Both the position numbers and the translations under genes were made by a program. A DNA stretch of 60,030 nucleotides, from assembly GCF_003334405.1 (NCBI RefSeq), contig NZ_QOWM01000020.1; one strand, written 5' to 3'. The notes beneath the pieces were generated by a model. That model was not told where the DNA came from, did not search any database, and saw nothing but the letters and a program-made list of their open reading frames with translations. Within the stretch, counting starts at the first letter, position 1, and each line of letters begins with the position of its first letter. This stretch comes from Escherichia coli (GTDB lineage: Bacteria > Pseudomonadota > Gammaproteobacteria > Enterobacterales > Enterobacteriaceae). Shown in pieces: positions 3,489 to 59,934 of the stretch.

Positions 3489-4598
<1,110 letters not shown>

Positions 4599-6367: not shown

Positions 6368-7183
6368 ATGACGGAAGTTAGACGGCGCGGCAGGCCAGGA
6401 CAGGCGGAGCCTGTGGCACAGAAGGGCGCACAGGCGTTAGAGCGGGGAATTGCGATTCTGCAATATTTGGAAAAAAGTGGGGGAAGTTCGTCGGTTAGCG
6501 ATATTTCTCTCAATCTGGATTTGCCGCTCTCCACGACCTTTCGCTTGCTGAAGGTTTTACAGGCAGCGGATTTTGTCTATCAGGACAGTCAATTAGGCTG
6601 GTGGCATATAGGATTAGGTGTCTTTAACGTCGGTGCGGCGTACATCCATAACCGCGATGTCCTCTCCGTCGCCGGGCCGTTTATGCGCCGCCTGATGTTA
6701 CTTTCCGGCGAAACGGTCAATGTCGCGATCCGTAACGGCAATGAAGCGGTATTAATTGGTCAGTTAGAGTGTAAATCGATGGTCAGGATGTGTGCGCCAC
6801 TGGGCAGTCGTCTGCCACTGCATGCTTCCGGTGCGGGCAAAGCGCTGCTTTATCCGCTGGCGGAAGAGGAGTTGATGAGCATCATTCTGCAAACCGGTTT
6901 GCAGCAGTTTACGCCAACTACGCTTGTGGATATGCCCACCTTGCTGAAGGACCTGGAACAAGCGCGTGAACTGGGCTATACCGTAGATAAAGAAGAGCAT
7001 GTTGTAGGTCTGAATTGCATAGCTTCAGCAATTTACGATGATGTCGGTAGTGTTGTTGCCGCTATCTCCATCTCCGGGCCTTCATCAAGACTGACAGAAG
7101 ATCGTTTTGTCAGTCAGGGTGAGCTGGTCAGAGACACCGCCCGCGATATCAGCACGGCGTTGGGACTGAAAGCACATCCATAA
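6368..7183 (+). CDS. allR: IclR-family repressor of the allantoin regulon
   Basis: 271 aa; IclR-type N-terminal HTH and C-terminal effector domain. Confidence 0.9.
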
Positions 7184-7272: not shown

Positions 7273-9054
7273 ATGGCAAAAATGAGAGCCGTTGACGCGG
7301 CAATGTATGTGCTGGAGAAAGAAGGTATCACTACCGCCTTCGGTGTTCCGGGAGCTGCAATCAATCCGTTCTACTCAGCGATGCGTAAGCACGGCGGTAT
7401 TCGTCACATTCTGGCGCGTCATGTGGAAGGTGCTTCGCACATGGCGGAAGGTTATACCCGCGCAACGGCAGGGAATATCGGCGTATGTCTGGGGACTTCC
7501 GGTCCTGCGGGCACGGACATGATCACCGCGCTCTATTCCGCTTCTGCTGATTCCATTCCTATTCTGTGCATTACCGGCCAGGCACCGCGCGCCCGTCTGC
7601 ATAAAGAAGATTTTCAGGCCGTAGATATTGAAGCAATTGCTAAACCGGTCAGCAAAATGGCGGTTACAGTTCGTGAAGCGGCGCTGGTGCCTCGCGTGCT
7701 GCAACAGGCATTTCACCTGATGCGTTCTGGTCGTCCGGGTCCGGTACTGGTGGATTTACCGTTCGACGTTCAGGTTGCGGAAATCGAGTTTGATCCTGAC
7801 ATGTACGAACCGCTGCCGGTCTACAAACCTGCTGCCAGCCGTATGCAGATCGAAAAAGCTGTAGAAATGTTAATCCAGGCCGAACGTCCGGTGATTGTTG
7901 CCGGGGGCGGGGTAATTAATGCTGACGCAGCTGCACTGTTACAACAGTTTGCTGAACTGACCAGCGTTCCGGTGATCCCAACGCTAATGGGCTGGGGCTG
8001 TATCCCGGACGATCATGAACTGATGGCCGGGATGGTGGGTCTGCAAACCGCGCATCGTTACGGTAACGCAACGCTGCTGGCGTCTGACATGGTGTTTGGT
8101 ATCGGTAACCGTTTTGCTAACCGTCATACCGGCTCGGTAGAGAAATACACCGAAGGGCGCAAAATCGTTCATATTGATATTGAGCCGACGCAAATTGGTC
8201 GCGTGCTGTGTCCGGATCTCGGTATTGTCTCTGATGCTAAAGCGGCGCTGACACTGCTGGTTGAAGTGGCGCAGGAGATGCAAAAAGCGGGTCGTCTGCC
8301 GTGTCGTAAAGAATGGGTCGCCGACTGCCAGCAGCGTAAACGCACTTTGCTGCGCAAAACCCACTTCGACAACGTGCCGGTGAAACCGCAGCGCGTGTAT
8401 GAAGAGATGAACAAAGCCTTTGGTCGCGATGTTTGTTATGTCACCACCATTGGTCTGTCACAAATCGCTGCGGCACAAATGCTGCATGTCTTTAAAGACC
8501 GCCACTGGATCAACTGTGGTCAGGCTGGTCCGTTAGGCTGGACGATTCCGGCTGCGCTAGGGGTTTGTGCCGCTGATCCGAAACGCAATGTGGTGGCGAT
8601 TTCTGGCGACTTTGACTTCCAGTTCCTGATTGAAGAGTTAGCTGTTGGCGCGCAGTTCAACATTCCGTACATCCATGTGCTGGTCAACAACGCTTATCTG
8701 GGGCTGATTCGTCAGTCACAACGCGCTTTTGACATGGACTACTGCGTGCAACTCGCTTTCGAGAATATCAACTCCAGTGAAGTGAATGGCTACGGTGTTG
8801 ACCACGTAAAAGTAGCGGAAGGTTTAGGTTGTAAAGCTATTCGGGTCTTCAAACCGGAAGATATTGCGCCAGCCTTTGAACAGGCGAAAGCCTTAATGGC
8901 GCAATATCGGGTACCGGTAGTCGTGGAAGTTATTCTCGAGCGTGTGACCAATATTTCGATGGGCAGCGAACTGGATAACGTCATGGAATTTGAAGATATC
9001 GCCGATAACGCAGCGGACGCACCGACTGAAACCTGCTTCATGCACTATGAATAA
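7273..9054 (+). CDS. gcl: Glyoxylate carboligase (tartronate-semialdehyde synthase), ThDP enzyme
   Basis: 593 aa from ATG 7273 ([19 protein letters not shown]); the track ORF starts 30 codons upstream, inside the terminator/operator region. Confidence 0.9.
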
Positions 9055-10852: not shown

Positions 10853-11131
10853 ATGAATCGGCCAGCAATATTAAAAAAGAAAGCAGCCAAAGATGTTGCT
10901 TCAGTATTAAAAATAATATTTTTATTTTATTTGTTCCTCATAGCTAGATTAAAACAACGTTATTCGATACGTGAAATTAAGAGGGATTTATGGAACATCA
11001 GAGAAAACTATTCCAGCAACGCGGCTATAGCGAAGATCTATTGCCGAAAACGCAAAGCCAGCGGACCTGGAAAACATTTAACTATTTTACCTTATGGATG
11101 GGTTCGGTTCATAACGTTCCCAATTATGTGA
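10853..11131 (+). CDS. ybbV: Small ORF upstream of and overlapping the permease start (YbbV-like, 92 aa)
   Basis: ORF only; overlaps the ybbW start in another frame, so it may be non-coding leader. Confidence 0.25.
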   Translation: MNRPAILKKKAAKDVASVLKIIFLFYLFLIARLKQRYSIREIKRDLWNIRENYSSNAAIAKIYCRKRKASGPGKHLTILPYGWVRFITFPIM

Positions 11132-12444
11132 TGGTCGGCGGCTTTTTTATTCTCGGCTTGTCTACCTTTAGTATTATGCTGGCAATTATCCTCAGCGCCT
11201 TTTTCATTGCCGCGGTAATGGTATTAAACGGTGCTGCGGGCAGTAAATACGGTGTGCCTTTTGCCATGATCCTGCGTGCTTCTTACGGTGTACGTGGTGC
11301 ACTGTTTCCCGGATTATTAAGGGGCGGAATTGCCGCCATCATGTGGTTTGGTTTGCAATGTTACGCGGGGTCACTGGCCTGCTTGATTCTGATTGGCAAA
11401 ATCTGGCCGGGATTTTTAACTCTCGGTGGTGATTTCACTCTGTTAGGCCTTTCTCTACCGGGCTTAATTACTTTCTTAATCTTCTGGCTGGTCAACGTTG
11501 GTATAGGTTTTGGCGGTGGCAAAGTTTTAAATAAATTCACTGCCATTCTTAACCCGTGCATCTATATCGTTTTCGGCGGTATGGCGATTTGGGCGATTTC
11601 ACTGGTCGGGATCGGTCCAATCTTTGACTACATTCCGAGCGGTATTCAGAAAGCAGAAAACGGTGGCTTCCTGTTCCTGGTGGTGATTAACGCGGTAGTT
11701 GCGGTCTGGGCGGCACCGGCGGTGAGCGCATCCGACTTTACGCAAAACGCCCACTCGTTTCGTGAGCAGGCGCTGGGGCAAACGCTGGGTTTAGTTGTGG
11801 CCTATATTCTGTTTGCGGTCGCCGGGGTATGTATTATTGCCGGAGCCAGTATTCACTACGGCGCTGATACCTGGAACGTGCTGGATATTGTTCAGCGTTG
11901 GGACAGCCTGTTCGCCTCGTTCTTTGCGGTACTGGTTATTCTGATGACAACTATCTCCACTAACGCGACCGGTAATATTATTCCAGCCGGTTATCAGATT
12001 GCCGCCATTGCACCGACAAAACTGACCTATAAAAACGGCGTACTGATTGCCAGTATTATCAGCTTGCTGATCTGCCCGTGGAAATTAATGGAAAATCAGG
12101 ACAGCATTTATCTTTTCCTCGATATTATCGGCGGAATGCTTGGTCCGGTAATTGGTGTCATGATGGCGCATTATTTTGTGGTGATGCGCGGACAAATTAA
12201 TCTTGATGAACTGTATACCGCACCTGGCGATTATAAATATTACGATAACGGTTTTAACCTCACTGCGTTTTCAGTAACTCTGGTGGCCGTTATTTTATCT
12301 CTTGGCGGTAAGTTTATTCACTTTATGGAACCGTTATCGCGTGTTTCATGGTTTGTCGGCGTCATCGTCGCCTTTGCGGCCTACGCCTTATTAAAGAAAC
12401 GTACAACAGCAGAAAAAACAGGAGAGCAAAAAACCATAGGTTAA
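10990..12444 (+). CDS. ybbW: Allantoin permease, NCS1 family
   Basis: 484 aa polytopic membrane protein; synteny within the allantoin cluster. Confidence 0.9.
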   Translation: MEHQRKLFQQRGYSEDLLPKTQSQRTWKTFNYFTLWMGSVHNVPNYVMVGGFFILGLSTFSIMLAIILSAFFIAAVMVLNGAAGSKYGVPFAMILRASYGVRGALFPGLLRGGIAAIMWFGLQCYAGSLACLILIGKIWPGFLTLGGDFTLLGLSLPGLITFLIFWLVNVGIGFGGGKVLNKFTAILNPCIYIVFGGMAIWAISLVGIGPIFDYIPSGIQKAENGGFLFLVVINAVVAVWAAPAVSASDFTQNAHSFREQALGQTLGLVVAYILFAVAGVCIIAGASIHYGADTWNVLDIVQRWDSLFASFFAVLVILMTTISTNATGNIIPAGYQIAAIAPTKLTYKNGVLIASIISLLICPWKLMENQDSIYLFLDIIGGMLGPVIGVMMAHYFVVMRGQINLDELYTAPGDYKYYDNGFNLTAFSVTLVAVILSLGGKFIHFMEPLSRVSWFVGVIVAFAAYALLKKRTTAEKTGEQKTIG

Positions 12445-12503
12445 TTAATCCCGATATTGAACATTGAGTTAAAAACCAATCTGTATTTTACAAGGAGTTT
12501 GTT

Positions 12504-13865
12504 ATGTCTTTTGATTTAATCATTAAAAACGGCACCGTTATTTTAGAAAACGAAGCTCGCGTTGTAGATATCGCCGTTAAAGGCGGAAAAATTGCTGCTA
12601 TCGGTCAGGATCTGGGCGATGCAAAAGAAGTTATGGATGCGTCTGGTCTGGTGGTTTCGCCGGGCATGGTTGATGCGCACACCCATATTTCTGAACCGGG
12701 TCGTAGCCACTGGGAAGGTTATGAAACCGGTACTCGCGCAGCGGCAAAAGGTGGTATCACCACCATGATCGAAATGCCGCTCAACCAGCTGCCTGCAACG
12801 GTTGACCGCGCTTCAATTGAACTGAAGTTCGATGCCGCTAAAGGCAAGCTGACTATTGATGCGGCACAACTCGGTGGCCTGGTGTCTTACAACATCGACC
12901 GTCTGCATGAGCTGGATGAAGTGGGCGTTGTCGGCTTCAAATGCTTCGTTGCGACCTGTGGCGATCGCGGTATCGACAACGACTTCCGTGATGTAAACGA
13001 CTGGCAGTTCTTCAAAGGTGCGCAGAAGCTGGGCGAACTGGGTCAGCCGGTGCTGGTGCACTGCGAAAACGCGCTGATTTGTGACGAACTGGGCGAAGAA
13101 GCGAAGCGTGAAGGTCGCGTAACCGCTCATGACTATGTGGCTTCGCGTCCGGTATTTACCGAAGTGGAAGCAATTCGCCGCGTACTGTATCTGGCGAAAG
13201 TTGCTGGTTGCCGTCTGCACGTTTGCCACGTCAGCAGCCCGGAAGGTGTTGAGGAAGTGACTCGTGCACGTCAGGAAGGTCAGGACGTTACTTGTGAATC
13301 CTGCCCGCATTACTTTGTACTGGATACCGATCAGTTCGAAGAAATCGGTACTCTGGCGAAGTGTTCACCGCCGATCCGCGATCTGGAAAACCAGAAAGGC
13401 ATGTGGGAAAAACTGTTTAACGGTGAAATCGACTGCCTGGTTTCCGACCACTCTCCATGCCCGCCGGAAATGAAAGCCGGTAACATCATGAAAGCATGGG
13501 GCGGTATCGCCGGTCTGCAAAGCTGCATGGACGTGATGTTCGATGAAGCGGTACAGAAACGCGGTATGTCTCTGCCAATGTTCGGCAAATTAATGGCGAC
13601 TAACGCAGCAGATATTTTCGGTCTGCAGCAAAAAGGCCGTATCGCCCCAGGAAAAGATGCCGACTTCGTCTTCATTCAGCCGAATAGCAGCTATGTTCTT
13701 ACCAATGACGATCTGGAATATCGCCACAAAGTCAGCCCGTATGTTGGCCGTACCATTGGCGCGCGTATCACGAAAACCATCTTACGTGGTGATGTGATTT
13801 ACGACATTGAACAGGGCTTCCCTGTTGCGCCGAAAGGTCAATTTATCCTTAAACATCAGCAGTAA
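12504..13865 (+). CDS. allB: Allantoinase
   Basis: 453 aa; amidohydrolase metal-binding motifs (DAHTHI ... HVCHVSS). Confidence 0.9.
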
Positions 13866-13921
13866 TCTGGCCCCTGCAATGCCCGTCCTTGCGGCGGGCA
13901 TTCTCCGGTTAAGGTGTGTTT

Positions 13922-15223
13922 ATGTTCAATTTTGCAGTCAGCCGCGAAAGCCTGTTATCAGGATTTCAGTGGTTTTTCTTTATTTTTTGCAACACGGTTG
14001 TGGTTCCTCCTACGCTACTTTCTGCTTTTCAGTTGCCGCAAAGTAGCCTGCTTACGCTCACGCAATATGCTTTTCTTGCTACCGCACTGGCCTGCTTCGC
14101 TCAGGCGTTTTGCGGTCATCGTCGCGCTATTATGGAAGGGCCAGGTGGCCTGTGGTGGGGAACCATCCTTACTATCACCCTTGGTGAAGCATCGCGCGGG
14201 ACACCGATCAACGATATCGCCACCAGCCTGGCAGTGGGGATTGCACTCTCCGGCGTGCTGACGATGTTGATTGGTTTTAGCGGATTAGGCCATCGCCTGG
14301 CACGGTTATTTACGCCGTCGGTGATGGTCTTGTTTATGTTGATGCTGGGCGCGCAGCTGACCACTATCTTTTTCAAAGGTATGCTCGGGCTGCCGTTTGG
14401 CATAGCCGACCCGAATTTTAAAATTCAGTTACCGCCGTTCGCGCTCTCGGTGGCGGTGATGTGCCTGGTACTGGCGATGATTATCTTCCTGCCGCAACGT
14501 TTTGCCCGTTATGGCCTGCTGGTCGGCACCATAACCGGCTGGTTGTTGTGGTACTTTTGCTTTCCTTCTTCGCACTCGCTCTCCGGTGAGTTGCACTGGC
14601 AGTGGTTCCCGCTCGGCAGTGGCGGTGCTTTGTCGCCGGGAATTATTCTGACGGCGGTGATTACAGGTCTGGTAAATATCAGCAATACCTACGGTGCGAT
14701 TCGGGGCACGGATGTTTTTTATCCGCAGCAGGGCGCAGGGAATACGCGTTATCGTCGTAGCTTTGTGGCGACCGGATTTATGACGCTGATAACCGTACCG
14801 CTGGCGGTAATTCCATTTTCACCGTTTGTTTCATCCATTGGTTTATTAACCCAGACTGGCGATTACACGCGGCGTTCGTTTATTTATGGCAGCGTTATTT
14901 GCCTGCTGGTGGCGCTGGTTCCTGCACTCACGCGACTGTTTTGCAGTATCCCTTTACCCGTGAGTAGTGCGGTCATGCTGGTTTCTTATCTGCCTTTACT
15001 CTTTTCCGCGCTGGTGTTTAGCCAGCAAATAACGTTTACCGCTCGCAATATTTATCGACTCGCATTGCCGTTATTTGTCGGCATATTTTTAATGGCATTA
15101 CCGCCTGTGTATCTGCAAGACCTTCCATTAACGCTTCGTCCTCTGCTCAGTAACGGCTTATTGGTCGGGATTTTACTGGCTGTTCTTATGGATAACCTTA
15201 TTCCGTGGGAACGCATCGAATAA
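13922..15223 (+). CDS. ybbY: Putative purine/uracil permease (NCS2-like membrane protein)
   Basis: ~433 aa polytopic membrane protein; ATG at 13922 (track ORF uses GTG 13916). Confidence 0.85.
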   Translation: MFNFAVSRESLLSGFQWFFFIFCNTVVVPPTLLSAFQLPQSSLLTLTQYAFLATALACFAQAFCGHRRAIMEGPGGLWWGTILTITLGEASRGTPINDIATSLAVGIALSGVLTMLIGFSGLGHRLARLFTPSVMVLFMLMLGAQLTTIFFKGMLGLPFGIADPNFKIQLPPFALSVAVMCLVLAMIIFLPQRFARYGLLVGTITGWLLWYFCFPSSHSLSGELHWQWFPLGSGGALSPGIILTAVITGLVNISNTYGAIRGTDVFYPQQGAGNTRYRRSFVATGFMTLITVPLAVIPFSPFVSSIGLLTQTGDYTRRSFIYGSVICLLVALVPALTRLFCSIPLPVSSAVMLVSYLPLLFSALVFSQQITFTARNIYRLALPLFVGIFLMALPPVYLQDLPLTLRPLLSNGLLVGILLAVLMDNLIPWERIE

Positions 15224-16439: not shown

Positions 16440-16550
16440 TCATGCCGGATGCGGCATGAGTACCATATCCTTCCTGAAAATCGCGCAAATTCTATATATT
16501 GCAGAGATCATGTAGGCCTGATAAGCGAAGCGCATCAGGCAATGTTACAA
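16440..16550. repeat. REP (repetitive extragenic palindrome) elements
   Basis: REP-type palindromes (GCCGGATGCGGC; GTAGGCCTGATAAGCG...CGCATCAGGCA) between convergent glxK and allE. Confidence 0.7.
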
Positions 16551-16617
16551 AAAAAGCCACGGTATAAACCGTGGCAAAATCCAACATAGCTAAAAATAAT
16601 CAGGCGAGTGGTATGAC

Positions 16618-31577: not shown

Positions 31578-32120
31578 ATGAAATTAAGATTTATTTCGTC
31601 TGCGCTGGCTGCCGCACTATTCGCCGCTACGGGTAGTTATGCTGCCGTTGTAGATGGCGGTACAATTCACTTTGAAGGCGAACTGGTGAATGCTGCCTGT
31701 TCAGTGAATACTGACTCGGCAGACCAAGTTGTCACACTCGGTCAATATCGTACCGATATTTTCAATGCTGTTGGTAATACCTCTGCATTAATTCCATTCA
31801 CCATTCAGTTGAACGACTGCGATCCTGTTGTTGCCGCTAATGCTGCCGTTGCATTTTCTGGTCAGGCTGATGCAATCAATGATAATTTATTGGCCATTGC
31901 ATCCAGTACCAATACAACAACAGCAACGGGTGTCGGTATTGAAATACTTGATAATACATCCGCAATTCTCAAACCTGATGGGAATAGCTTCTCAACCAAC
32001 CAGAACTTGATCCCCGGGACCAACGTTCTTCATTTTTCTGCACGTTATAAAGGCACCGGTACAAGTGCATCAGCAGGGCAAGCAAATGCTGACGCGACTT
32101 TTATTATGAGATACGAATAA
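31578..32120 (+). CDS. sfmA: Type 1-like fimbrial major subunit
   Basis: ~180 aa with signal peptide ([22 protein letters not shown]) and fimbrin fold. Confidence 0.85.
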
Positions 32121-32339
32121 TCAAAACCACGTTGTTTTGAATTATATATCACGTCTTATAACAAAGTAATGTACCGGTTGTCTGAAGCGGTATGGTGGCA
32201 ATGTAAATCGAAATCATGTTCACTTTGTATCATGCCGCTTTATTAAATGAAAAGGGAATGATGTGTTGTAAGAAACCAAAGCAATCATTTCTTTATATTT
32301 CTTATTTTTGCCGTCAGGAATACACAAGGCGTATTAACT

Positions 32340-33032
32340 ATGATGACTAAAATAAAGTTATTGATGCTCATTATATTTTATTTAATCATTTCGGCCAGCG
32401 CCCATGCTGCCGGAGGGATCGCATTAGGTGCCACGCGTATTATTTATCCCGCTGATGCTAAACAGACTGCGGTATGGATTAGAAATAGCCATACCAATGA
32501 GCGTTTTCTGGTCAATTCGTGGATTGAAAACAGCAGCGGTGTAAAAGAAAAGTCATTCATCATTACACCGCCACTATTTGTTAGTGAACCCAAAAGCGAA
32601 AATACTTTGCGTATTATTTACACCGGTCCACCGCTGGCGGCAGATCGTGAGTCTCTGTTCTGGATGAATGTTAAGACGATCCCTTCGGTAGATAAAAATG
32701 CATTGAACGGCAGGAATGTTTTGCAACTGGCGATTTTATCGCGCATGAAGTTATTTCTCCGTCCAATTCAATTACAAGAATTACCCGCAGAAGCGCCGGA
32801 CACACTCAAGTTTTCGCGATCCGGTAACTATATCAATGTTCATAATCCATCACCTTTTTATGTCACCCTGGTTAACTTACAAGTGGGCAGCCAAAAGTTG
32901 GGGAATGCTATGGCTGCACCCAGAGTTAATTCACAAATTCCCTTACCCTCAGGAGTGCAGGGAAAGCTGAAATTTCAGACCGTTAATGATTATGGTTCAG
33001 TAACCCCGGTCAGAGAAGTGAACTTAAACTAA
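32340..33032 (+). CDS. sfmC: Fimbrial periplasmic chaperone (PapD-like)
   Basis: 230 aa; signal peptide; chaperone-usher synteny. Confidence 0.9.
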
Positions 33033-33062
33033 CCGAATCATCTGACAATATCAGAGCTAATT

Positions 33063-35672
33063 ATGAAAATACCCACTACTACGGATATTCCGCAGAGGTA
33101 TACCTGGTGTCTGGCCGGAATTTGTTATTCATCTCTTGCCATTTTACCCTCCTTTTTAAGCTATGCGGAAAGTTATTTCAACCCGGCATTTTTATTAGAG
33201 AATGGCACATCCGTTGCTGATTTATCGCGCTTTGAGAGAGGTAATCATCAACCTGCGGGCGTGTATCGGGTGGATCTCTGGCGTAATGATGAGTTCATTG
33301 GTTCACAGGATATCGTATTTGAATCGACAACAGAAAATACAGGTGATAAATCAGGTGGGTTAATGCCCTGTTTTAACCAGGTACTCCTTGAACGAATTGG
33401 CCTTAATAGCAGTGCATTTCCCGAGTTAGCCCAGCAGCAAAATAATAAATGCATCAATTTACTGAAAGCTGTACCTGATGCCACAATTAACTTTGATTTT
33501 GCAGCGATGCGCCTGAACATCACTATTCCTCAGATAGCGTTGTTGAGTAGCGCTCACGGTTACATTCCGCCTGAAGAGTGGGATGAAGGTATTCCTGCTT
33601 TACTCCTGAATTATAATTTCACTGGTAACAGAGGTAATGGTAACGATAGCTATTTTTTTAGTGAGCTCAGCGGGATTAATATTGGCCCGTGGCGTTTACG
33701 CAACAATGGTTCCTGGAACTATTTTCGCGGAAATGGGTATCATTCAGAACAGTGGAATAATATTGGCACCTGGGTACAGCGCGCCATTATTCCGCTGAAA
33801 AGTGAACTGGTAATGGGAGACGGCAATACAGGAAGTGATATTTTCGATGGTGTTGGATTTCGTGGTGTACGGCTTTACTCTTCCGATAATATGTATCCTG
33901 ATAGCCAGCAAGGGTTTGCCCCAACAGTACGTGGGATTGCCCGTACGGCGGCCCAGCTAACGATTCGGCAAAATGGTTTTATTATCTATCAAAGCTATGT
34001 TTCCCCCGGCGCTTTTGAAATTACAGATTTGCACCCGACATCTTCAAATGGCGATCTGGACGTCACCATCGACGAGCGCGATGGCAATCAGCAGAATTAC
34101 ACTATTCCGTATTCAACAGTGCCAATTTTACAACGCGAAGGGCGTTTCAAATTTGACCTGACGGCGGGCGATTTTCGTAGCGGTAATAGTCAGCAATCAT
34201 CGCCTTTCTTTTTTCAGGGCACGGTACTCGGCGGTTTACCACAGGAATTTACTGCCTACGGCGGGACGCAATTATCTGCCAATTACACCGCCTTTTTATT
34301 AGGGCTGGGGCGCAACCTCGGGAACTGGGGCGCAGTGTCGCTGGATGTGACCCATGCGCGCAGTCAGTTAGCCGACGATAGTCGTCATGAGGGGGATTCT
34401 ATTCGCTTCCTCTATGCGAAATCGATGAACACCTTCGGCACCAATTTTCAGTTAATGGGTTACCGCTATTCGACACAAGGTTTTTATACCCTTGATGATG
34501 TTGCGTATCGTCGAATGGAGGGGTACGAATATGATTACGATTACGACGGTGAGCATCGCGATGAACCGATAATCGTGAATTACCACAATTTACGCTTTAG
34601 CCGTAAAGACCGTTTGCAGTTAAATATTTCACAATCACTTAATGACTTTGGCTCGCTTTATATCTCTGGTACCCATCAAAAATACTGGAATACATCGGAT
34701 TCAGATACGTGGTATCAGGTGGGGTATACCAGCAGCTGGGTTGGCATCAGTTATTCGCTCTCATTTTCGTGGAATGAATCTGTAGGGATCCCCGATAACG
34801 AACGTATTGTCGGACTTAATGTTTCAGTGCCTTTCAATGTTCTGACCAAACGTCGCTACACCCGGGAAAATGCGCTCGACCGCGCTTATGCCTCCTTTAA
34901 CGCCAACCGTAACAGCAACGGGCAAAATAGCTGGCTGGCAGGTGTAGGTGGGACCTTACTGGAAGGCCACAACCTGAGTTATCACGTAAGCCAGGGTGAT
35001 ACCTCGAATAATGGGTATACGGGCAGCGCCACGGCAAACTGGCAGGCCGCTTACGGTACGCTGGGGGTCGGGTATAACTACGACCGCGATCAACATGACG
35101 TTAACTGGCAGCTGTCTGGCGGTGTGGTCGGGCATGAAAATGGCATAACGCTGAGCCAGCCTTTAGGGGATACCAATGTTTTGATTAAAGCGCCTGGCGC
35201 AGGCGGTGTACGCATTGAAAATCAAACTGGCATTTTAACCGACTGGCGCGGCTATGCGGTGATGCCGTATGCCACGGTTTATCGGTATAACCGTATCGCG
35301 CTTGATACCAATACGATGGGGAATTCCATCGATGTTGAAAAAAATATTAGCAGCGTTGTGCCGACGCAAGGCGCGTTGGTTCGTGCCAATTTTGATACCC
35401 GCATAGGCGTGCGGGCGCTCATTACCGTTACCCAGGGCGGAAAACCGGTGCCGTTTGGATCACTGGTACGGGAAAACAGTACCGGAATAACCAGTATGGT
35501 GGGTGATGACGGGCAAGTTTATTTAAGTGGTGCGCCATTGTCTGGTGAATTACTGGTTCAGTGGGGAGACGGCGCGAACTCACGCTGCATTGCGCACTAT
35601 GTATTGCCGAAGCAAAGCTTACAGCAAGCCGTCACTGTTATTTCGGCAGTTTGCACACATCCTGGCTCATAA
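33063..35672 (+). CDS. sfmD: Fimbrial outer-membrane usher
   Basis: 869 aa; synteny. Confidence 0.9.
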
Positions 35673-35684
35673 AGGAAATTATCA

Positions 35685-36692
35685 ATGAAGATAATCTGCA
35701 GATTATTATTGGCGATGGCATGTTTGTGTCTGGCAAACATATCCTGGGCTACTGTTTGTGCAAATAGTACTGGCGTAGCAGAAGATGAACACTATGATCT
35801 CTCAAATATCTTTAATAGCACCAATAACCAGCCAGGGCAGATTGTTGTTTTACCGGAAAAATCCGGCTGGGTAGGTGTCTCAGCAATTTGTCCACCCGGC
35901 ACGCTGGTGAATTATACATACCGTAGTTATGTCACCAACTTTATTGTTCAGGAAACTATCGATAATTATAAATATATGCAATTAAATGATTATCTATTAG
36001 GTGCGATGAGTCTGGTTGATAGTGTTATGGATATTCAGTTCCCCCCGCAAAATTATATTCGGATGGGAACAGATCCTAACGTTTCGCAAAACCTTCCATT
36101 CGGGGTGATGGATTCTCGTTTAATATTTCGTTTAAAGGTTATTCGTCCCTTTATTAACATGGTGGAGATCCCCAGACAGGTGATGTTTACCGTGTATGTG
36201 ACATCAACGCCTTACGATCCGTTGGTTACACCTGTTTATACCATTAGTTTTGGTGGCCGGGTTGAAGTACCGCAAAACTGCGAATTAAATGCCGGGCAGA
36301 TTGTTGAATTTGATTTTGGTGATATCGGCGCATCGTTATTTAGTGCGGCAGGGCCGGGTAATCGACCTGCTGGTGTCATGCCGCAAACCAAGAGCATTGC
36401 GGTCAAATGTACGAATGTTGCTGCGCAGGCTTATTTAACAATGCGTCTGGAAGCCAGTGCCGTTTCTGGTCAGGCGATGGTGTCGGACAATCAGGATTTA
36501 GGTTTTATTGTCGCCGATCAGAACGATACGCCGATCACGCCTAACGATCTCAATAGCGTTATTCCTTTCCGTCTGGATGCAGCTGCGGCAGCCAATGTCA
36601 CACTTCGCGCCTGGCCTATCAGTATTACCGGTCAAAAACCGACCGAAGGGCCGTTTAGCGCGCTGGGGTATTTACGCGTCGATTATCAATGA
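35685..36692 (+). CDS. sfmH: Fimbrial adhesin-like subunit
   Basis: 335 aa with signal peptide; FimH-like position in the operon. Confidence 0.8.
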   Translation: MKIICRLLLAMACLCLANISWATVCANSTGVAEDEHYDLSNIFNSTNNQPGQIVVLPEKSGWVGVSAICPPGTLVNYTYRSYVTNFIVQETIDNYKYMQLNDYLLGAMSLVDSVMDIQFPPQNYIRMGTDPNVSQNLPFGVMDSRLIFRLKVIRPFINMVEIPRQVMFTVYVTSTPYDPLVTPVYTISFGGRVEVPQNCELNAGQIVEFDFGDIGASLFSAAGPGNRPAGVMPQTKSIAVKCTNVAAQAYLTMRLEASAVSGQAMVSDNQDLGFIVADQNDTPITPNDLNSVIPFRLDAAAAANVTLRAWPISITGQKPTEGPFSALGYLRVDYQ

Positions 36693-36702
36693 GGTACGGA
36701 GA

Positions 36703-37218
36703 ATGAGAAGAGTACTCTTTAGCTGTTTCTGCGGGCTACTGTGGAGTTCCAGTGGATGGGCAGTTGACCCTTTAGGAACGATTAATATCAATTTGCACGG
36801 TAACGTTGTTGATTTCTCCTGTACCGTAAACACAGCGGATATTGATAAGACGGTAGATTTAGGCAGATGGCCTACGACACAACTACTGAACGCTGGCGAT
36901 ACCACGGCACTCGTCCCTTTTAGCCTGCGGCTGGAGGGATGTCCTCCGGGTTCAGTTGCGATTTTATTTACGGGAACGCCGGCATCCGATACCAACCTGC
37001 TGGCTCTGGATGATCCCGCAATGGCACAAACCGTCGCCATCGAATTACGTAATAGCGATCGCTCCCGGCTCGCACTGGGGGAGGCGAGCCCGACTGAGGA
37101 AGTAGATGCAAATGGCAATGTCACACTAAACTTTTTTGCCAATTATCGAGCGTTAGCCAGCGGTGTTCGGCCAGGTGTGGCGAAAGCGGATGCGATATTT
37201 ATGATCAATTATAATTAA
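36703..37218 (+). CDS. sfmF: Fimbrial minor subunit
   Basis: ~171 aa from MRRVLFSCFCGLLWSSSGWA. Confidence 0.8.
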   Translation: MRRVLFSCFCGLLWSSSGWAVDPLGTININLHGNVVDFSCTVNTADIDKTVDLGRWPTTQLLNAGDTTALVPFSLRLEGCPPGSVAILFTGTPASDTNLLALDDPAMAQTVAIELRNSDRSRLALGEASPTEEVDANGNVTLNFFANYRALASGVRPGVAKADAIFMINYN

Positions 37219-37220
37219 TA

Positions 37221-37853
37221 TTATATTAATTCGTATAATTTGGCGTAGTCGATAAGCTCTACAATTGAATGCAAACCTAGCTTGCCATAAATATTAGATT
37301 TATGCGCACTAACTGTTTTATTGCTAAGTAATAACTTATCGGCAATTTCTTTATTAGATAATCCGCTAACCAGATAACGTAATATGGTCACTTCACGATT
37401 AGATAGCACAGTGACCGTTGAACTATTCGTACTACATTTATTGCTTTTTATATAGTTAAGCGTTTCGCTGGGAAAAAACGTGTATCCGGAGAGGATCATC
37501 TGAACGGCATGAAAAATATCATTCTGATCATTGCATTTACTGACAAAACCGTTAGCACCAGCTTGTATCGCTCTGCCAGCATAAAAGCATTCTGATTTCG
37601 ATGATAAAAATAACACTTTCACTGTGCTCTGGATTTGTTTGATCCTTTTCAGGAAGGTAAAACCGTCTGTTCCGGGCAAGTCTATATCCATAATGATTAA
37701 ATCAACAGGACGGGTTCGGAGATAATCGATGGTTATGCGATAATCATCCGTTTTCAGGACAATCTGCAATTCACTGTTTTTTTGCAACAGAACTTCAATA
37801 GACATTCTGATGATAGGATGAGTATCCATAATGATCACCGACGTTGGTTTCAT
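37221..37853 (-). CDS. fimZ: LuxR/NarL-family response regulator of fimbrial expression
   Basis: ~210 aa from MKPTSVIIMDTHPI; receiver domain plus C-terminal LuxR HTH. Confidence 0.85.
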   Translation of the reverse strand: MKPTSVIIMDTHPIIRMSIEVLLQKNSELQIVLKTDDYRITIDYLRTRPVDLIIMDIDLPGTDGFTFLKRIKQIQSTVKVLFLSSKSECFYAGRAIQAGANGFVSKCNDQNDIFHAVQMILSGYTFFPSETLNYIKSNKCSTNSSTVTVLSNREVTILRYLVSGLSNKEIADKLLLSNKTVSAHKSNIYGKLGLHSIVELIDYAKLYELI

Positions 37854-38036
37854 AGTTACCAGTCTCATAGGAGCGGACAATTTTCCGTTAGGTCGGGAAA
37901 TTGTACTTTGATACATGAAAATACGGGTTTTCTTGATTCAGACGCGCAGCGGTGTGCGTTTGTTTGCCGCTATAGCGAAATAAATCAGAAAATCAGACGC
38001 GGTCGTTCACTTGTTCAGCAACCAGATCAAAAGCCA

Positions 38037-38064
38037 TTGACTCAGCAAGGGTTGACCGTATAAT
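38037..38064 (+). promoter_or_regulatory. Candidate sigma70 promoter for argU
   Basis: TTGACT (38037-42), 16-bp spacer, TATAAT (38059-64), about 30 bp upstream of the tRNA 5' end. Confidence 0.45.
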
Positions 38065-38095
38065 TCACGCGATTACACCGCATTGCGGTATCAAC

Positions 38096-38172
38096 GCGCC
38101 CTTAGCTCAGTTGGATAGAGCAACGACCTTCTAAGTCGTGGGCCGCAGGTTCGAATCCTGCAGGGCGCGCCA
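38096..38172 (+). tRNA. argU: tRNA-Arg (anticodon UCU)
   Basis: 77-nt cloverleaf GCGCCCTTAGCTCAGTTGGATAGAGC...CTTCTAAGTCG...GGTTCGAATCCTGCAGGGCGCGCCA with anticodon loop cuUCUaa and encoded CCA. Confidence 0.9.
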
Positions 38173-38217
38173 TTTCTTCCTCATTTATGCCCGTCTTATC
38201 CGTTTCCGCTTTGCCCT

Positions 38218-38979
38218 TCACCACATCACTTTTTGTCGCTGTTTGGCGAGATAATTCAACGGTGTCAGGCCGTAAAACGCCTTAAAAACAGAGATAAAGT
38301 ACGACGTGCTGCTATAGCCACATAATTGCGCCACCTGAGTGATATTTTTGTTATCCATCAATAACATCTGTACGGCGTAACGCATACGACACTCTGTGAC
38401 AATCTGGCTATAGCTGGTATTTTCGTTTTTTAATTTCTTTTTGAGCAGGCTGGGGCTTAAACATAGCGAACTGGCGACAATTCGCAGATTCCAGTAATGC
38501 TGAATATCGCTTTGAATAATGCGGCAGACGCTGTCGCGGACGCTGCTGCGTAAGATATACATCAGTAGGGCAATAAACCGCGATTGCTCAAGAAAGTTAG
38601 ACAATACGGTAAAAAGCAATGCGCGCGTCAACTCCGCTTCGCAGGGTCTGCTGGGTTGCTGCTTGCTGTGGTTGGCGGCTAGCCGGAACACTTCCGGTGT
38701 ACGGCTATGACAAGCGATAACCGGGGTTGCCAGCCGCGACCAGGGCTTTACACAGGTTAAGTTCTTATTTAAAAACAACAGATAATCGTTGATGATGTTA
38801 CGGTTGATGTGGGTGATTAATACGTGATTTAACGTTGAGAGTTCAATGACGTTATTGTTGCACGCGAAGGCGGCCAGGTAGTTTTTCGGAAGGGTAAACG
38901 TAGCATGGTTATTGACGCTTACCTCTACCTCTTTTTCGGTCAGGATCACCACGCAAGGTTCACTGCTGCTCAATTGCAT
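38218..38979 (-). CDS. envY: AraC-family transcriptional regulator (porin thermoregulation)
   Basis: 253 aa; C-terminal AraC-type HTH. Confidence 0.85.
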   Translation of the reverse strand: MQLSSSEPCVVILTEKEVEVSVNNHATFTLPKNYLAAFACNNNVIELSTLNHVLITHINRNIINDYLLFLNKNLTCVKPWSRLATPVIACHSRTPEVFRLAANHSKQQPSRPCEAELTRALLFTVLSNFLEQSRFIALLMYILRSSVRDSVCRIIQSDIQHYWNLRIVASSLCLSPSLLKKKLKNENTSYSQIVTECRMRYAVQMLLMDNKNITQVAQLCGYSSTSYFISVFKAFYGLTPLNYLAKQRQKVMW

Positions 38980-39161
38980 TTCGCACTCCTCAGATATCAG
39001 AAACTCCGCTCAAAGGATCTATGCTTCCTGCATGAGTGATCGGCCCGTTCGCCGATAACGATCTTCTTTCTTTAGCACGCTTTTTAGCAATTAATCTTGA
39101 TGGAATTCTGATGAGAGCGAAAGAGGTAAGCCAGGTCGTACCCGACTTACCTGGAGGAGAT

Positions 39162-40052
39162 TTAATACTCGAGAATGCCGTGCGCGACGGGCAAATAGCG
39201 CAGAGAGAAATAGAGAGTGTCTTTACCGCAAGAGGAACGTTTCGCTAACAGCGAGGCAATTTCTGCGTCCGGTTTCGGTTTCGCTGTAAAGGTTTTGCCT
39301 TTGCCGGCGACAAAAAGTTCATAAACAACGCCGCTGGCAGGGGCGGGACTTTGGCAATCGGCGCTGGCCTGTAAATAACGTTCACGCTGTTCAGCGGTCA
39401 GTTTATCCACGCCGCTGCCATCCTGTACCCAGACATTAACGCCGGTTGCTTTAACGTGTTCCAGCAGTTGGCGATAGCCATCGGGCGACATGTTTCCGGC
39501 GAAAAAACTACTGATATAAACCGGTTTTGCTGAAACATCGCTAATCAGCCGCTGCGCGTTGTTTAACCATGTTAGCAAAGGCTGACGGGCGGCTTCGCTG
39601 CGCCAGTTCAGGTCGTCAATTTCCGCGCTGATGTACCAGCCATCCGGCGTTATGCCAGGCGCGGCGCTCCATAATCTGGCTTGCTGGAGATCGGCAGCCA
39701 GCAGGCGATTAAGATAGCTTTCCAGCGCTGCGGACGACTGTTTCTGGTGCATAAAAAATTCCGGATCGGCGTTCAGCCCGACAATAAGCTTCAGACCAGC
39801 CTGTTGCGCAGCTGCGGCCCGCTTAAACAATAACGTGCGCTGTTCTGGCTGGGTAAATGCATCGCCGTAACGGGTCCATTGCAAAACAAGGGTATCGAAG
39901 CCTTGCAAACGTAACTGACTCATCAGCCCCTGCCACTGGGTATCGGTAACCTGACTATCTCGGTTTTGTGGTTGCCAGATAATACCTTTCATCGCAAAGG
40001 AAAAAGGGCTGACCAAAAGCAGTGTCAGCAATACGAAAATGAACTTACGCAT
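39162..40052 (-). CDS. ybcH: Periplasmic protein of the nfr locus (YbcH), secreted
   Basis: 296 aa with signal peptide MRKFIFVLLTLLLVSPFSFA; directly downstream of nfrA. Confidence 0.8.
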   Translation of the reverse strand: MRKFIFVLLTLLLVSPFSFAMKGIIWQPQNRDSQVTDTQWQGLMSQLRLQGFDTLVLQWTRYGDAFTQPEQRTLLFKRAAAAQQAGLKLIVGLNADPEFFMHQKQSSAALESYLNRLLAADLQQARLWSAAPGITPDGWYISAEIDDLNWRSEAARQPLLTWLNNAQRLISDVSAKPVYISSFFAGNMSPDGYRQLLEHVKATGVNVWVQDGSGVDKLTAEQRERYLQASADCQSPAPASGVVYELFVAGKGKTFTAKPKPDAEIASLLAKRSSCGKDTLYFSLRYLPVAHGILEY

Positions 40053-47670: not shown

Positions 47671-49050
47671 ATGTCTCCTTGTAAACTTCTGCCATTTTGT
47701 GTGGCCCTTGCGCTAACCGGTTGTTCACTGGCACCGGATTATCAGCGCCCGGCAATGCCCGTACCGCAGCAGTTCTCACTCAGCCAGAACGGCCTCGTTA
47801 ACGCAGCAGATAACTATCAGAACGCGGGCTGGCGCACCTTTTTTGTTGATAATCAGGTGAAGACGCTGATTAGCGAGGCGCTGGTGAATAACCGGGATTT
47901 GCGCATGGCGACGCTGAAAGTGCAGGAGGCACGGGCGCAATATCGTCTGACTGATGCCGACCGCTACCCACAGCTCAATGGCGAGGGCAGCGGCAGCTGG
48001 AGCGGTAATCTTAAAGGGAATACCGCCACGACACGGGAGTTTTCGACCGGCCTTAACGCCAGCCTTGACCTCGATTTTTTCGGTCGCTTAAAGAACATGA
48101 GCGAAGCCGAGCGACAAAATTATTTAGCCACTGAGGAAGCTCAGCGCGCGGTGCATATTCTGCTGGTTTCTAATGTCGCGCAAAGCTATTTCAATCAGCA
48201 ACTGGCGTATGCGCAATTGCAAATAGCCGAAGAAACGCTGCGTAATTATCAGCAGTCATATGCGTTTGTCGAAAAACAACTGTTGACCGGTAGCAGCAAT
48301 GTTCTGGCGCTGGAACAGGCTCGCGGGGTGATAGAAAGTACCCGCAGTGACATCGCTAAACGTCAGGGGGAACTGGCGCAGGCGAATAATGCATTGCAAC
48401 TGTTATTGGGAAGCTACGGCAAGCTGCCGCAAGCGCAGACAGTAAACAGCGACAGTCTGCAAAGCGTTAAATTACCGGCGGGCTTGTCGTCGCAAATCTT
48501 ATTGCAGCGCCCGGATATTATGGAAGCTGAACACGCGTTAATGGCGGCTAATGCCAATATTGGTGCTGCGCGTGCGGCATTTTTCCCGTCTATCAGCCTG
48601 ACCAGCGGAATATCGACCGCCAGCAGCGATCTGTCGTCATTATTTAACGCCAGCAGCGGGATGTGGAATTTTATACCCAAAATTGAGATCCCCATTTTTA
48701 ATGCCGGACGCAACCAGGCCAATCTGGATATCGCCGAAATTCGCCAGCAGCAGTCGGTAGTGAATTATGAACAGAAAATCCAGAACGCCTTTAAAGAAGT
48801 GGCAGATGCGCTGGCATTACGTCAAAGCCTGAACGATCAAATCAGCGCCCAGCAGCGTTATCTGGCGTCGCTGCAAATTACTTTGCAACGGGCGCGGGCA
48901 TTATATCAGCACGGCGCGGTAAGTTATCTGGAAGTGCTGGATGCCGAGCGTTCTTTATTTGCAACCCGACAAACCTTACTTGACCTGAATTATGCCCGTC
49001 AGGTCAACGAAATTTCTTTATATACCGCACTTGGTGGCGGTTGGCAGTAG
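47671..49050 (+). CDS. cusC: Outer-membrane factor of the Cu/Ag RND efflux system (lipoprotein)
   Basis: 459 aa; lipobox LTGC. Confidence 0.9.
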   Translation: MSPCKLLPFCVALALTGCSLAPDYQRPAMPVPQQFSLSQNGLVNAADNYQNAGWRTFFVDNQVKTLISEALVNNRDLRMATLKVQEARAQYRLTDADRYPQLNGEGSGSWSGNLKGNTATTREFSTGLNASLDLDFFGRLKNMSEAERQNYLATEEAQRAVHILLVSNVAQSYFNQQLAYAQLQIAEETLRNYQQSYAFVEKQLLTGSSNVLALEQARGVIESTRSDIAKRQGELAQANNALQLLLGSYGKLPQAQTVNSDSLQSVKLPAGLSSQILLQRPDIMEAEHALMAANANIGAARAAFFPSISLTSGISTASSDLSSLFNASSGMWNFIPKIEIPIFNAGRNQANLDIAEIRQQQSVVNYEQKIQNAFKEVADALALRQSLNDQISAQQRYLASLQITLQRARALYQHGAVSYLEVLDAERSLFATRQTLLDLNYARQVNEISLYTALGGGWQ

Positions 49051-59338: not shown

Positions 59339-59639
59339 TTATGTTGGCGTTTTCTATTCAGTATAGAAGTCGGAGCGGCTGGGCGAGATGCGGAAGTTCT
59401 GGAATGTTTCTTTTTTTTGGTGATGGTGAACTGATGGTGCCTGAAGCAATTTGGCTACTTTTGCAATGTGACAAGTTATGGCAGTGCTGACTGGTGGCGA
59501 AGAATTTTGACGATTGAGTCATGCAGAAAAAAACGGGTTCAGCTTCAGTTGATTAAATGAGGAGTGAGAAGTCCGAAACAGGACTCACTGTATAAATAAA
59601 CAGCTATTTTGTTGAGGAAGGGTAAGATAACGGCGGGTG

Positions 59640-59705
59640 CCTGAAGCTTTCCGGTTTCAGGTTTACTCTGAGGTCTGGAAAGATGAAGCCCCAGGAGATA
59701 TTTCT
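59640..59705 (-). ncRNA. sokE: Putative Sok-type antisense RNA (sokE), position approximate
   Basis: Inferred only from hok/sok architecture (antisense to the mok leader/start); no independent signal seen in the sequence. Confidence 0.2.
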
Positions 59706-59781
59706 ATCAACCCTGGGGCTGCCACTCCAAACCCGAACAATTTGGATGGTAGTCCCTTCTTCGCATGGAGGCAATATAAAC

Positions 59782-59934
59782 ATGCTGACGAAATATGCCC
59801 TTGCGGCAGTCATAGTGCTGTGTTTAACGGTGCTGGGATTTACGCTTCTGGTCGGAGACTCGCTGTGTGAGTTTACGGTGAAGGAACGTAATATTGAGTT
59901 TAAGGCTGTTCTCGCTTACGAACCGAAGAAGTAG
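59782..59934 (+). CDS. hokE: Hok-family type I toxin (small membrane peptide)
   Basis: 50-aa [53 protein letters not shown]; the in-frame upstream extension (59683) corresponds to the mok-like leader ORF. Confidence 0.85.

Follow-up and report, generated by a model that had tools for sequence, protein, structure and literature searches.

AGA codon 16 of fimZ and the adjoining tRNA gene argU in Escherichia coli: a pairing that probably reflects inherited gene order and compositional codon usage

The stretch of DNA analysed here (the window; 60,030 nucleotides of Escherichia coli, assembly GCF_003334405.1, contig NZ_QOWM01000020.1) carries the response regulator gene fimZ at one end of the sfm fimbrial cluster and, next to it, argU, the gene of tRNA-Arg(UCU). 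Arginine 16 of FimZ is encoded by AGA, a codon read by this tRNA, and the original prediction took the adjacency to suggest a control of the fimbrial system similar to that exerted in Salmonella by the homologous tRNA gene fimU. The finding is right as an observation and partly supported as an interpretation, and it is ordinary and already known. The AGA codon and the neighbouring argU probably reflect an inherited gene order combined with compositional codon usage. Every AGA codon needs tRNA-Arg(UCU), so that the dependence of FimZ and the Sfm proteins on argU would be the same as for the products of all AT-rich genes.

The arginine codons were divided into AGA/AGG (AGR) and the other arginine codon family (CGN). 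There are eight in fimZ, two AGA, one AGG and five CGN, placed in the order AGA (codon 16), CGC (39), CGA (46), CGT (48), AGG (70), AGA (94) and CGT (153 and 159). The assignment of AGA to Arg16 was confirmed by sequence and translation, and the four codons initially checked by hand (AGA, CGC, CGA and CGT) had been read correctly and correspond to codons 16, 39, 46 and 48. The relevant positions in the regulator gene are the following:

37221-37853, minus strand: fimZ coding sequence, 210 amino acids, LuxR/FixJ-type response regulator (RefSeq annotation, translation)
37806-37808, minus strand: fimZ codon 16, AGA (Arg16), seen as TCT on the plus strand
37644-37646, minus strand: fimZ codon 70, AGG
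37572-37574, minus strand: fimZ codon 94, AGA

The five sfm genes jointly show AGR at 13 of their 84 arginine codons, distributed as 2 of 4 in sfmA (one at codon 4), 4 of 11 in sfmC, 3 of 48 in sfmD (one at codon 12), 1 of 12 in sfmH and 3 of 9 in sfmF. The last of these includes a tandem AGA AGA at codons 2-3, which is the strongest local AGR cluster at the locus.

31578-37218, plus strand: sfmA-sfmC-sfmD-sfmH-sfmF, chaperone-usher fimbrial genes orthologous to Salmonella fimA, C, D, H and F
31578-32120, plus strand: sfmA
32340-33032, plus strand: sfmC
33063-35672, plus strand: sfmD
35715-36692, plus strand: sfmH
36703-37218, plus strand: sfmF, ATG start at 36703 with GGAG just before it
36706-36711, plus strand: sfmF codons 2-3, tandem AGA AGA

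Taken together, sfm and fimZ have AGR at 16 of 92 arginine codons; for the 38 remaining genes of the window the figure is 26 of 740 (odds ratio 5.8, p = 2e-6). The raw excess of AGA/AGG across the cluster is therefore real, but it is lost when genes of equal composition serve as the reference. The GC content of the sfm/fimZ cluster is 0.39-0.47 (about 0.40 across fimZ) against about 0.55 in the flanks, and the GC content at third codon positions (GC3) is 0.38 in fimZ and 0.35-0.47 in the sfm genes. A composition control was built from four arbitrary 50-kb E. coli regions plus the window, with the sfm cluster left out (about 220 open reading frames), in which the AGR share of the arginine codons varies with GC3 as follows:

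GC3 below 0.40: 0.36
GC3 0.40-0.45: 0.32
GC3 0.45-0.50: 0.137
GC3 0.50-0.55: 0.096
GC3 0.55-0.60: 0.038
GC3 above 0.60: 0.048

Against this background, 19.5 AGR codons are expected in sfm plus fimZ, compared with the 16 observed, and 2.9 in fimZ alone, compared with 3 of 8. No individual sfm or fimZ gene is significantly high in AGR with respect to its GC3-matched expectation. The AGR content beyond gene composition that would mark a gate of the fimU type was thus found neither in fimZ nor in the cluster. The disappearance of the excess under GC3 matching indicates that the enrichment is normal for E. coli genes of such composition, and the similar control that had been deduced from the adjacency is left unsupported by codon content.

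The position of the codon is equally unexceptional. All five arginine codons within codons 1-25 of the sfm and fimZ genes are AGR, a single one of them in fimZ. The window's non-fimbrial genes are likewise richer in AGR in this zone, where it accounts for 5 of 45 arginine codons, than further on, where it accounts for 21 of 695 (odds ratio 4, p = 0.017), and AGA is found at codon 4 or 5 of four unrelated genes:

4572-4574: mnmH codon 4, AGA
6380-6382: allR codon 5, AGA, with AGG also at codon 9
7285-7287: gcl codon 5, AGA
11002-11004: allW codon 5, AGA

Chen and Inouye (1990, 1994), as cited in a later paper, reported a single AGR in the first 25 codons for over 100 genes of E. coli, a zone preferred by AGA and AGG. 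A single early AGR, as carried by these genes and by several unrelated genes of the window, does not make a special signal, and the 5'-proximal position of the AGR in fimZ is not special but a general E. coli tendency. The single early AGR codons of the locus (fimZ 16, sfmA 4 and sfmD 12) and the sfmF pair at +2,+3 fit the general pattern of the early-AGR studies. The AGA and AGG codons in fimZ and sfm would then combine the usual codon usage of AT-rich E. coli genes with the general AGR tendency in the first 25 codons.

The adjacency itself was traced by comparison of gene order. The window is chromosomal DNA of E. coli; many sequenced strains match its positions 37000-39200 at 100% identity, and the RefSeq annotation of an identical strain gives the order folD, sfmA-C-D-H-F, fimZ (on the opposite strand), tRNA-Arg, envY, ybcH and nfrA. 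The protein belongs to the NCBIfam FimZ equivalog family NF007403 (447 bits, cut-off 271, residues 1-210 of 210), and both the Pfam receiver (PF00072) and GerE (PF00196) domains are found on the identical FimZ protein. The only tRNA gene detected in the window by ARAGORN is a tRNA-Arg with anticodon UCU. It is divergent from fimZ and placed 242 bp upstream of that gene's start codon, so that the neighbourhood of fimZ and argU was correctly described at the outset. It is identical to Salmonella fimU at 74 of 77 bases and shows no mismatch to the E. albertii gene, which together with its position establishes the orthology.

37854-38095: fimZ-argU divergent intergenic region, 242 bp
38037-38064, plus strand: promoter-like site upstream of argU (consensus match only)
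38096-38172, plus strand: argU, tRNA-Arg(UCU), reads AGA and AGG (ARAGORN; Rfam tRNA, 72 bits)

Orthologous loci were obtained through a homologous-protein search followed by retrieval of the encoding contigs, and comprise two Salmonella enterica, Citrobacter koseri, Cedecea, 'Enterobacter sp. Ap-916' (a close Cedecea relative), Kosakonia, Buttiauxella and E. albertii. In a contig scan with E. coli FimZ, E. albertii was the sole close relative; the 79 further loci, encoding distant LuxR-type response regulators, were left aside. The orthology of sfm and Salmonella fim is already published. In Salmonella, C. koseri and Kosakonia, as in E. coli, the cluster lies between folD and tRNA-Arg(UCU), and fimZ is convergent with sfmF or its orthologue, the last fimbrial subunit gene. 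In these three genera fimY and a gene for an EAL-domain protein (STM0551) lie between the tRNA gene and fimZ, joined in Salmonella and C. koseri by fimW; in Salmonella this leaves some 2.5 kb between the tRNA gene and fimZ, and some 250 bp between the tRNA gene and fimW. All three genes (fimY, the EAL gene and fimW) are absent from E. coli and E. albertii. Among the loci compared, the tight spacing of fimZ and the tRNA gene is seen in Escherichia alone. The E. coli cluster is not a complete Salmonella-type one. It comprises the counterparts of fimA, fimC, fimD, fimH and fimF together with fimZ and the tRNA gene, while no fimI (between sfmA and sfmC), fimY, EAL gene or fimW is annotated, and its intergenic intervals are too small for any of these four. 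The E. albertii locus (L090) has no gene called at the expected sfmD usher position (12172-14802), which may represent a disrupted pseudogene.

A closer inspection of the intergenic region revealed two parts. The tRNA-proximal one (38003-38095) shares homology with the sequence that precedes fimU in Salmonella, whereas the fimZ-proximal one (37858-38002, about 145 bp) has no detectable similarity to the fimZ upstream sequence of Salmonella, Citrobacter or Kosakonia. The 242-bp region is the junction left by the loss of the segment from fimY to fimW. The ancestor would have carried fimA-I-C-D-H-F, fimZ, fimY, the EAL gene (STM0551), fimW and tRNA-Arg(UCU), with the E. coli locus as a remnant between folD and argU. 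Escherichia has lost the fimY-to-fimW segment along with the original fimZ upstream sequence, a loss that placed fimZ within 242 bp of the tRNA gene.

In Cedecea, 'Enterobacter sp. Ap-916' and Buttiauxella the cluster occupies chromosomal sites other than folD, with fimAICDHF-fimZ-fimY-fimW complete (L086, L087 and L089; the EAL gene in L086 and L087), and no tRNA gene was found within the 10 kb fetched on each side of fimZ. Codon 16 of fimZ is still AGA in all three. The cluster has therefore been relocated, or else acquired, independently of the tRNA gene. Its presence elsewhere without the tRNA, together with the deletion in Escherichia, argues that the tRNA gene is not part of the cluster and that the tight spacing is a by-product of the deletion. 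A tRNA acts in trans, and the adjacency, made of a conserved gene order plus an Escherichia deletion and dispensable for AGR16 in three lineages, loses its value as a sign of control.

Insertion of the fim cluster as an island at the tRNA gene was considered and is not favoured: the cluster is found 5' of argU, on its promoter side, whereas integrase-borne elements are usually situated on the 3' side of a tRNA gene. That side of tRNA-Arg(UCU) carries a phage-type integrase gene in Kosakonia (L088, 6284-7453), gtr genes in Salmonella (L085, 3190-6108; GtrA-family and glycosyltransferase genes with PF04138, PF00535 and PF19528, taken as gtr-like) and, between the tRNA gene and envY, a gene for a SopA-like pentapeptide-repeat effector in E. 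albertii (L090, 6593-8410). The tRNA gene seems to have served repeatedly, in several genera, as a site of insertion. In the window only 45 bp (38173-38217) separate argU from the envY stop codon, and the strain appears to show the unoccupied site, in comparison with K-12, which we take to carry the DLP12 prophage, appY and ompT between argU and envY. A query spanning sfmF-fimZ-argU-envY-ybcH was covered to at least 80% at one place in 2444 of 5426 complete E. coli genomes.

The Salmonella precedent named in the original prediction is right, and its demonstrated target is fimY. In later papers that summarise the work (Swenson 1994; Tinker and Clegg 2001), fimU, a tRNA-Arg(UCU) gene, is described as required for the translation of FimY because of its AGR codons. 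In agreement, fimY in the Salmonella loci retrieved here has AGR at codons 7, 9 and 14 and five to eight AGR codons overall; Salmonella fimZ has AGA at codons 16, 94 and 97. A review names FimY as the only protein affected by fimU deficiency. The two systems share the orthologous tRNA, with the same anticodon and the same place at the end of a folD-proximal fim cluster, and an orthologous FimZ (about 72% amino-acid identity) with AGA16 in common. They differ in that fimY, fimW and the EAL gene are absent from E. coli, and in that the tRNA gene is 242 bp from fimZ in E. coli and adjoins fimW in Salmonella. The sole demonstrated fimU-dependent target, with three AGR in its first 14 codons, is therefore missing from E. 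coli, and the remaining gene, fimZ, is reported as unresponsive in Salmonella. The 242-bp interval contains no fimY, and no cluster of AGA/AGG within the first 15 or so codons of a target regulator was found in E. coli. Furthermore, in MG1655 argU is the single UCU tRNA gene and its transcription unit is essential, unlike in the Salmonella fimU model, so that argU could act by graded tuning but not as an on/off gate. The codon identities and counts, the synteny, the deletion junction and the composition-matched null, all read directly, give no sign at the locus of a dedicated adjacency-based translational gate, and from this we infer that argU has no locus-specific regulatory role.

Both the rare-codon count of fimZ and its link to argU are already known in the literature. 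The fimB/fimE/fimAICDFGH cluster presumably lies far from argU on the K-12 map, in which case an AGA enrichment there would be unrelated to adjacency. Garcia-Contreras et al. (2008, PLoS One, PMC2408971), whose study covers the fimZ locus of E. coli too, reported AGA enrichment for fimB, fimE, fimAICDFGH and fimZ alike; their AGA/AGG count in K-12 fimZ is 2/1, identical to the one obtained here, against 0.3/0.16 expected genome-wide (Table S4). Those authors proposed that the supply of a rare-codon tRNA (argU) limits the translation of fimbrial genes and regulators. Their baseline was the genome-average codon usage, in contrast with the composition-matched genes used here, and a recoding of fimZ was not part of that study. 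The control of fimB by leuX (tRNA-Leu) in uropathogenic E. coli, as cited by them, is a similar case in which a rare-codon tRNA is tied to how a fimbrial regulator is translated; the tRNA, the codon and the regulator are all different ones, and adjacency plays no part in it.

Several points weigh against inheritance and composition as the whole explanation. The composition-matched expectation was derived from some 220 greedily called open reading frames in 260 kb rather than from a whole genome. Hha, when overproduced, is reported to repress argU 5.6-fold and to bind at both argU and fimZ (PMC2408971), which makes a physiological variation of the tRNA-Arg(UCU) level plausible. The conservation of codon 16 is the single result that speaks for the original idea. 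AGR occupies this codon in nine of nine fimZ orthologues (seven AGA, two AGG), and column 16 is the only all-AGR one among 73 conserved arginine columns in eight fim gene families (53 all-CGN, 19 mixed). A metagenome scan with a pattern that left codon 16 free, E. coli excluded, gave 80 fimZ loci with AGA in 72, AGG in 5 and CGC in 3, that is, AGR in 77. The 71 distinct full-length fimZ genes formed 32 clusters at 92% nucleotide identity, 31 of them with AGR at codon 16, from at least seven genera and with neighbouring synonymous sites scrambled. That AGR is nearly universal at FimZ codon 16 is a comparative observation of small extent, and a new one.

The alternative best served by these points is a genuine but modest tuning, in which AGR16 (along with the AGR codons at 70 and 94), the AGR codons near the N-terminus of SfmA and SfmD, and the sfmF AGA AGA pair would make the synthesis of FimZ and Sfm unusually sensitive to charged tRNA-Arg(UCU). 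The supply would fall by Hha repression of argU or by competition from AGR-rich mRNAs, and fimZ would be the remaining tRNA-sensitive regulator after the loss of fimY. The uniformly AGR early arginine codons of the cluster agree with this idea, and so does the behaviour of AGA AGA at +2,+3, where peptidyl-tRNA-Arg4 accumulates with inhibition when the tRNA or peptidyl-tRNA hydrolase (Pth) is limiting. The ATG AGA AGA start of sfmF resembles the lacZ and lambda int constructs studied for this peptidyl-tRNA-Arg4 drop-off. These constructs (AGA AGG at +3,+4 of lambda int; AGA AGA in lacZ) were engineered reporters in overexpression, Pth-defective or tRNA-limited systems, and in wild-type cells AGA AGA at +2,+3 is as efficient in reporters as AAA AAA and is favourable for expression. 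Other genera do not share the sfmF pair either: C. koseri has one AGA (codon 2), and the other seven orthologues have no AGR at codons 2-3. Codon 16 of fimZ lies beyond the positions where early AGR acted most strongly. FimZ is moreover given in the review as unaffected in the Salmonella fimU mutant, despite the same AGA16. Together with a total AGR no higher than in GC3-matched genes, this leaves a specific tuning unlikely.

The force of the codon-16 column depends on how often the two arginine codon families are exchanged, which was estimated by parsimony on a 71-tip neighbour-joining tree. A single AGR/CGN switch was counted at column 16, while the other arginine columns gave 0, 0, 2, 3, 3 and 4; on the same fimZ tree, about 12 third-position changes were found at four-fold degenerate sites. 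The CGN columns 39 and 46 are at least as conserved as column 16, whose switch rate is no outlier. Family switches are rare at every arginine column and the conservation of codon 16 is consequently not distinguishable from inertia, so that a slow family turnover keeping an ancestral AGR explains the data as well as selection does. The special selection first suggested by the only all-AGR column was weakened by this count. On the other side, if AGR were mildly disfavoured its loss should be faster than its gain, and one loss at column 16 set against two to four gains at CGN columns would then leave room for a weak selection for AGR. Within E. coli, a 61-base segment around codon 16 is present in 4230 of 5426 complete genomes, 4185 of them with at least 99% identity, which says little given the low divergence.

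Two other readings of the codon-16 conservation were tried and discarded. A nucleotide-level constraint (a small RNA site or an embedded motif) was rejected because codons 14, 15, 18 and 19 vary freely at synonymous sites, and this scrambling means that there is no block conservation of nucleotides; Rfam, too, matched only the tRNA in the interval. A role of AGA16 in keeping the initiation region unstructured is unsupported, as six synonymous variants gave mean unpaired probabilities of 0.44-0.50 over positions -15 to +15.

A stronger version, in which AGR16 (perhaps with codon 70) would be ancient and selected across the FimZ clade, tying the synthesis of the fimbrial activator to tRNA-Arg(UCU) supply wherever the tRNA gene is sited and leaving it as the only tRNA-sensitive step of Sfm regulation after the loss of fimY, seems to us highly doubtful. 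The remaining AGR codons of fimZ are less uniform: codon 70 is AGG in E. coli, while AGA predominates among the other genera, with Salmonella and Citrobacter having CGA or CGG, and the AGA at codon 94, common to E. coli, Salmonella and C. koseri, is replaced by CGN in E. albertii and in the majority of the remaining lineages. CGC at codon 16 was found in a single full-length FimZ lineage (L108, metagenome contig Ga0105244_10002952), which keeps AGA at codon 70.

Inherited order and composition are also to be preferred to a transcriptional coupling of the two genes, in which the 242-bp divergent region would serve as a shared control region and H-NS/Hha on the AT-rich fimZ side, or argU promoter activity (for instance through local supercoiling), would link fimZ to argU transcription. 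A near-consensus sigma-70 site (TTGACT-16 nt-TATAAT, 11 of 12 matches), a putative argU promoter by its position about 30 nt 5' of the mature tRNA, is located 184 bp from the fimZ start, and the reported binding of Hha to both loci and the low GC content of fimZ point in the same direction, as does the loss of the Salmonella-type upstream region, after which the fimZ promoter must fall within the short shared interval. A consensus scan of that interval, however, found no sigma-70-like site for fimZ, the close spacing is restricted to Escherichia, no supporting experiment was found in the literature searched and the AGA codon that prompted the finding plays no part, all of which makes such a coupling very improbable.

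If argU supply did tune FimZ, the Salmonella fimU model would be extended to E. coli and a way would open to learn when the bacterium produces its sfm fimbriae, which are normally silent. The main value of the present case is one of caution: rare AGA/AGG codons in AT-rich fimbrial genes with an adjoining tRNA gene call for comparison with composition-matched genes, and with lineages lacking the adjacency, before regulation is inferred.

With respect to strain 4/2-1, sfmD shows a 6-base in-frame length difference with the reading frame intact, and the cusC frame (47671-49050), also intact, encodes 459 amino acids against 457. Elsewhere in the window, Rfam models scored above their gathering thresholds for the ES036 (CssrF) small RNA (16477-16519), the STnc480 small RNA (16545-16611) and a sok antitoxin RNA of a hok/sok-type locus (59635-59790).

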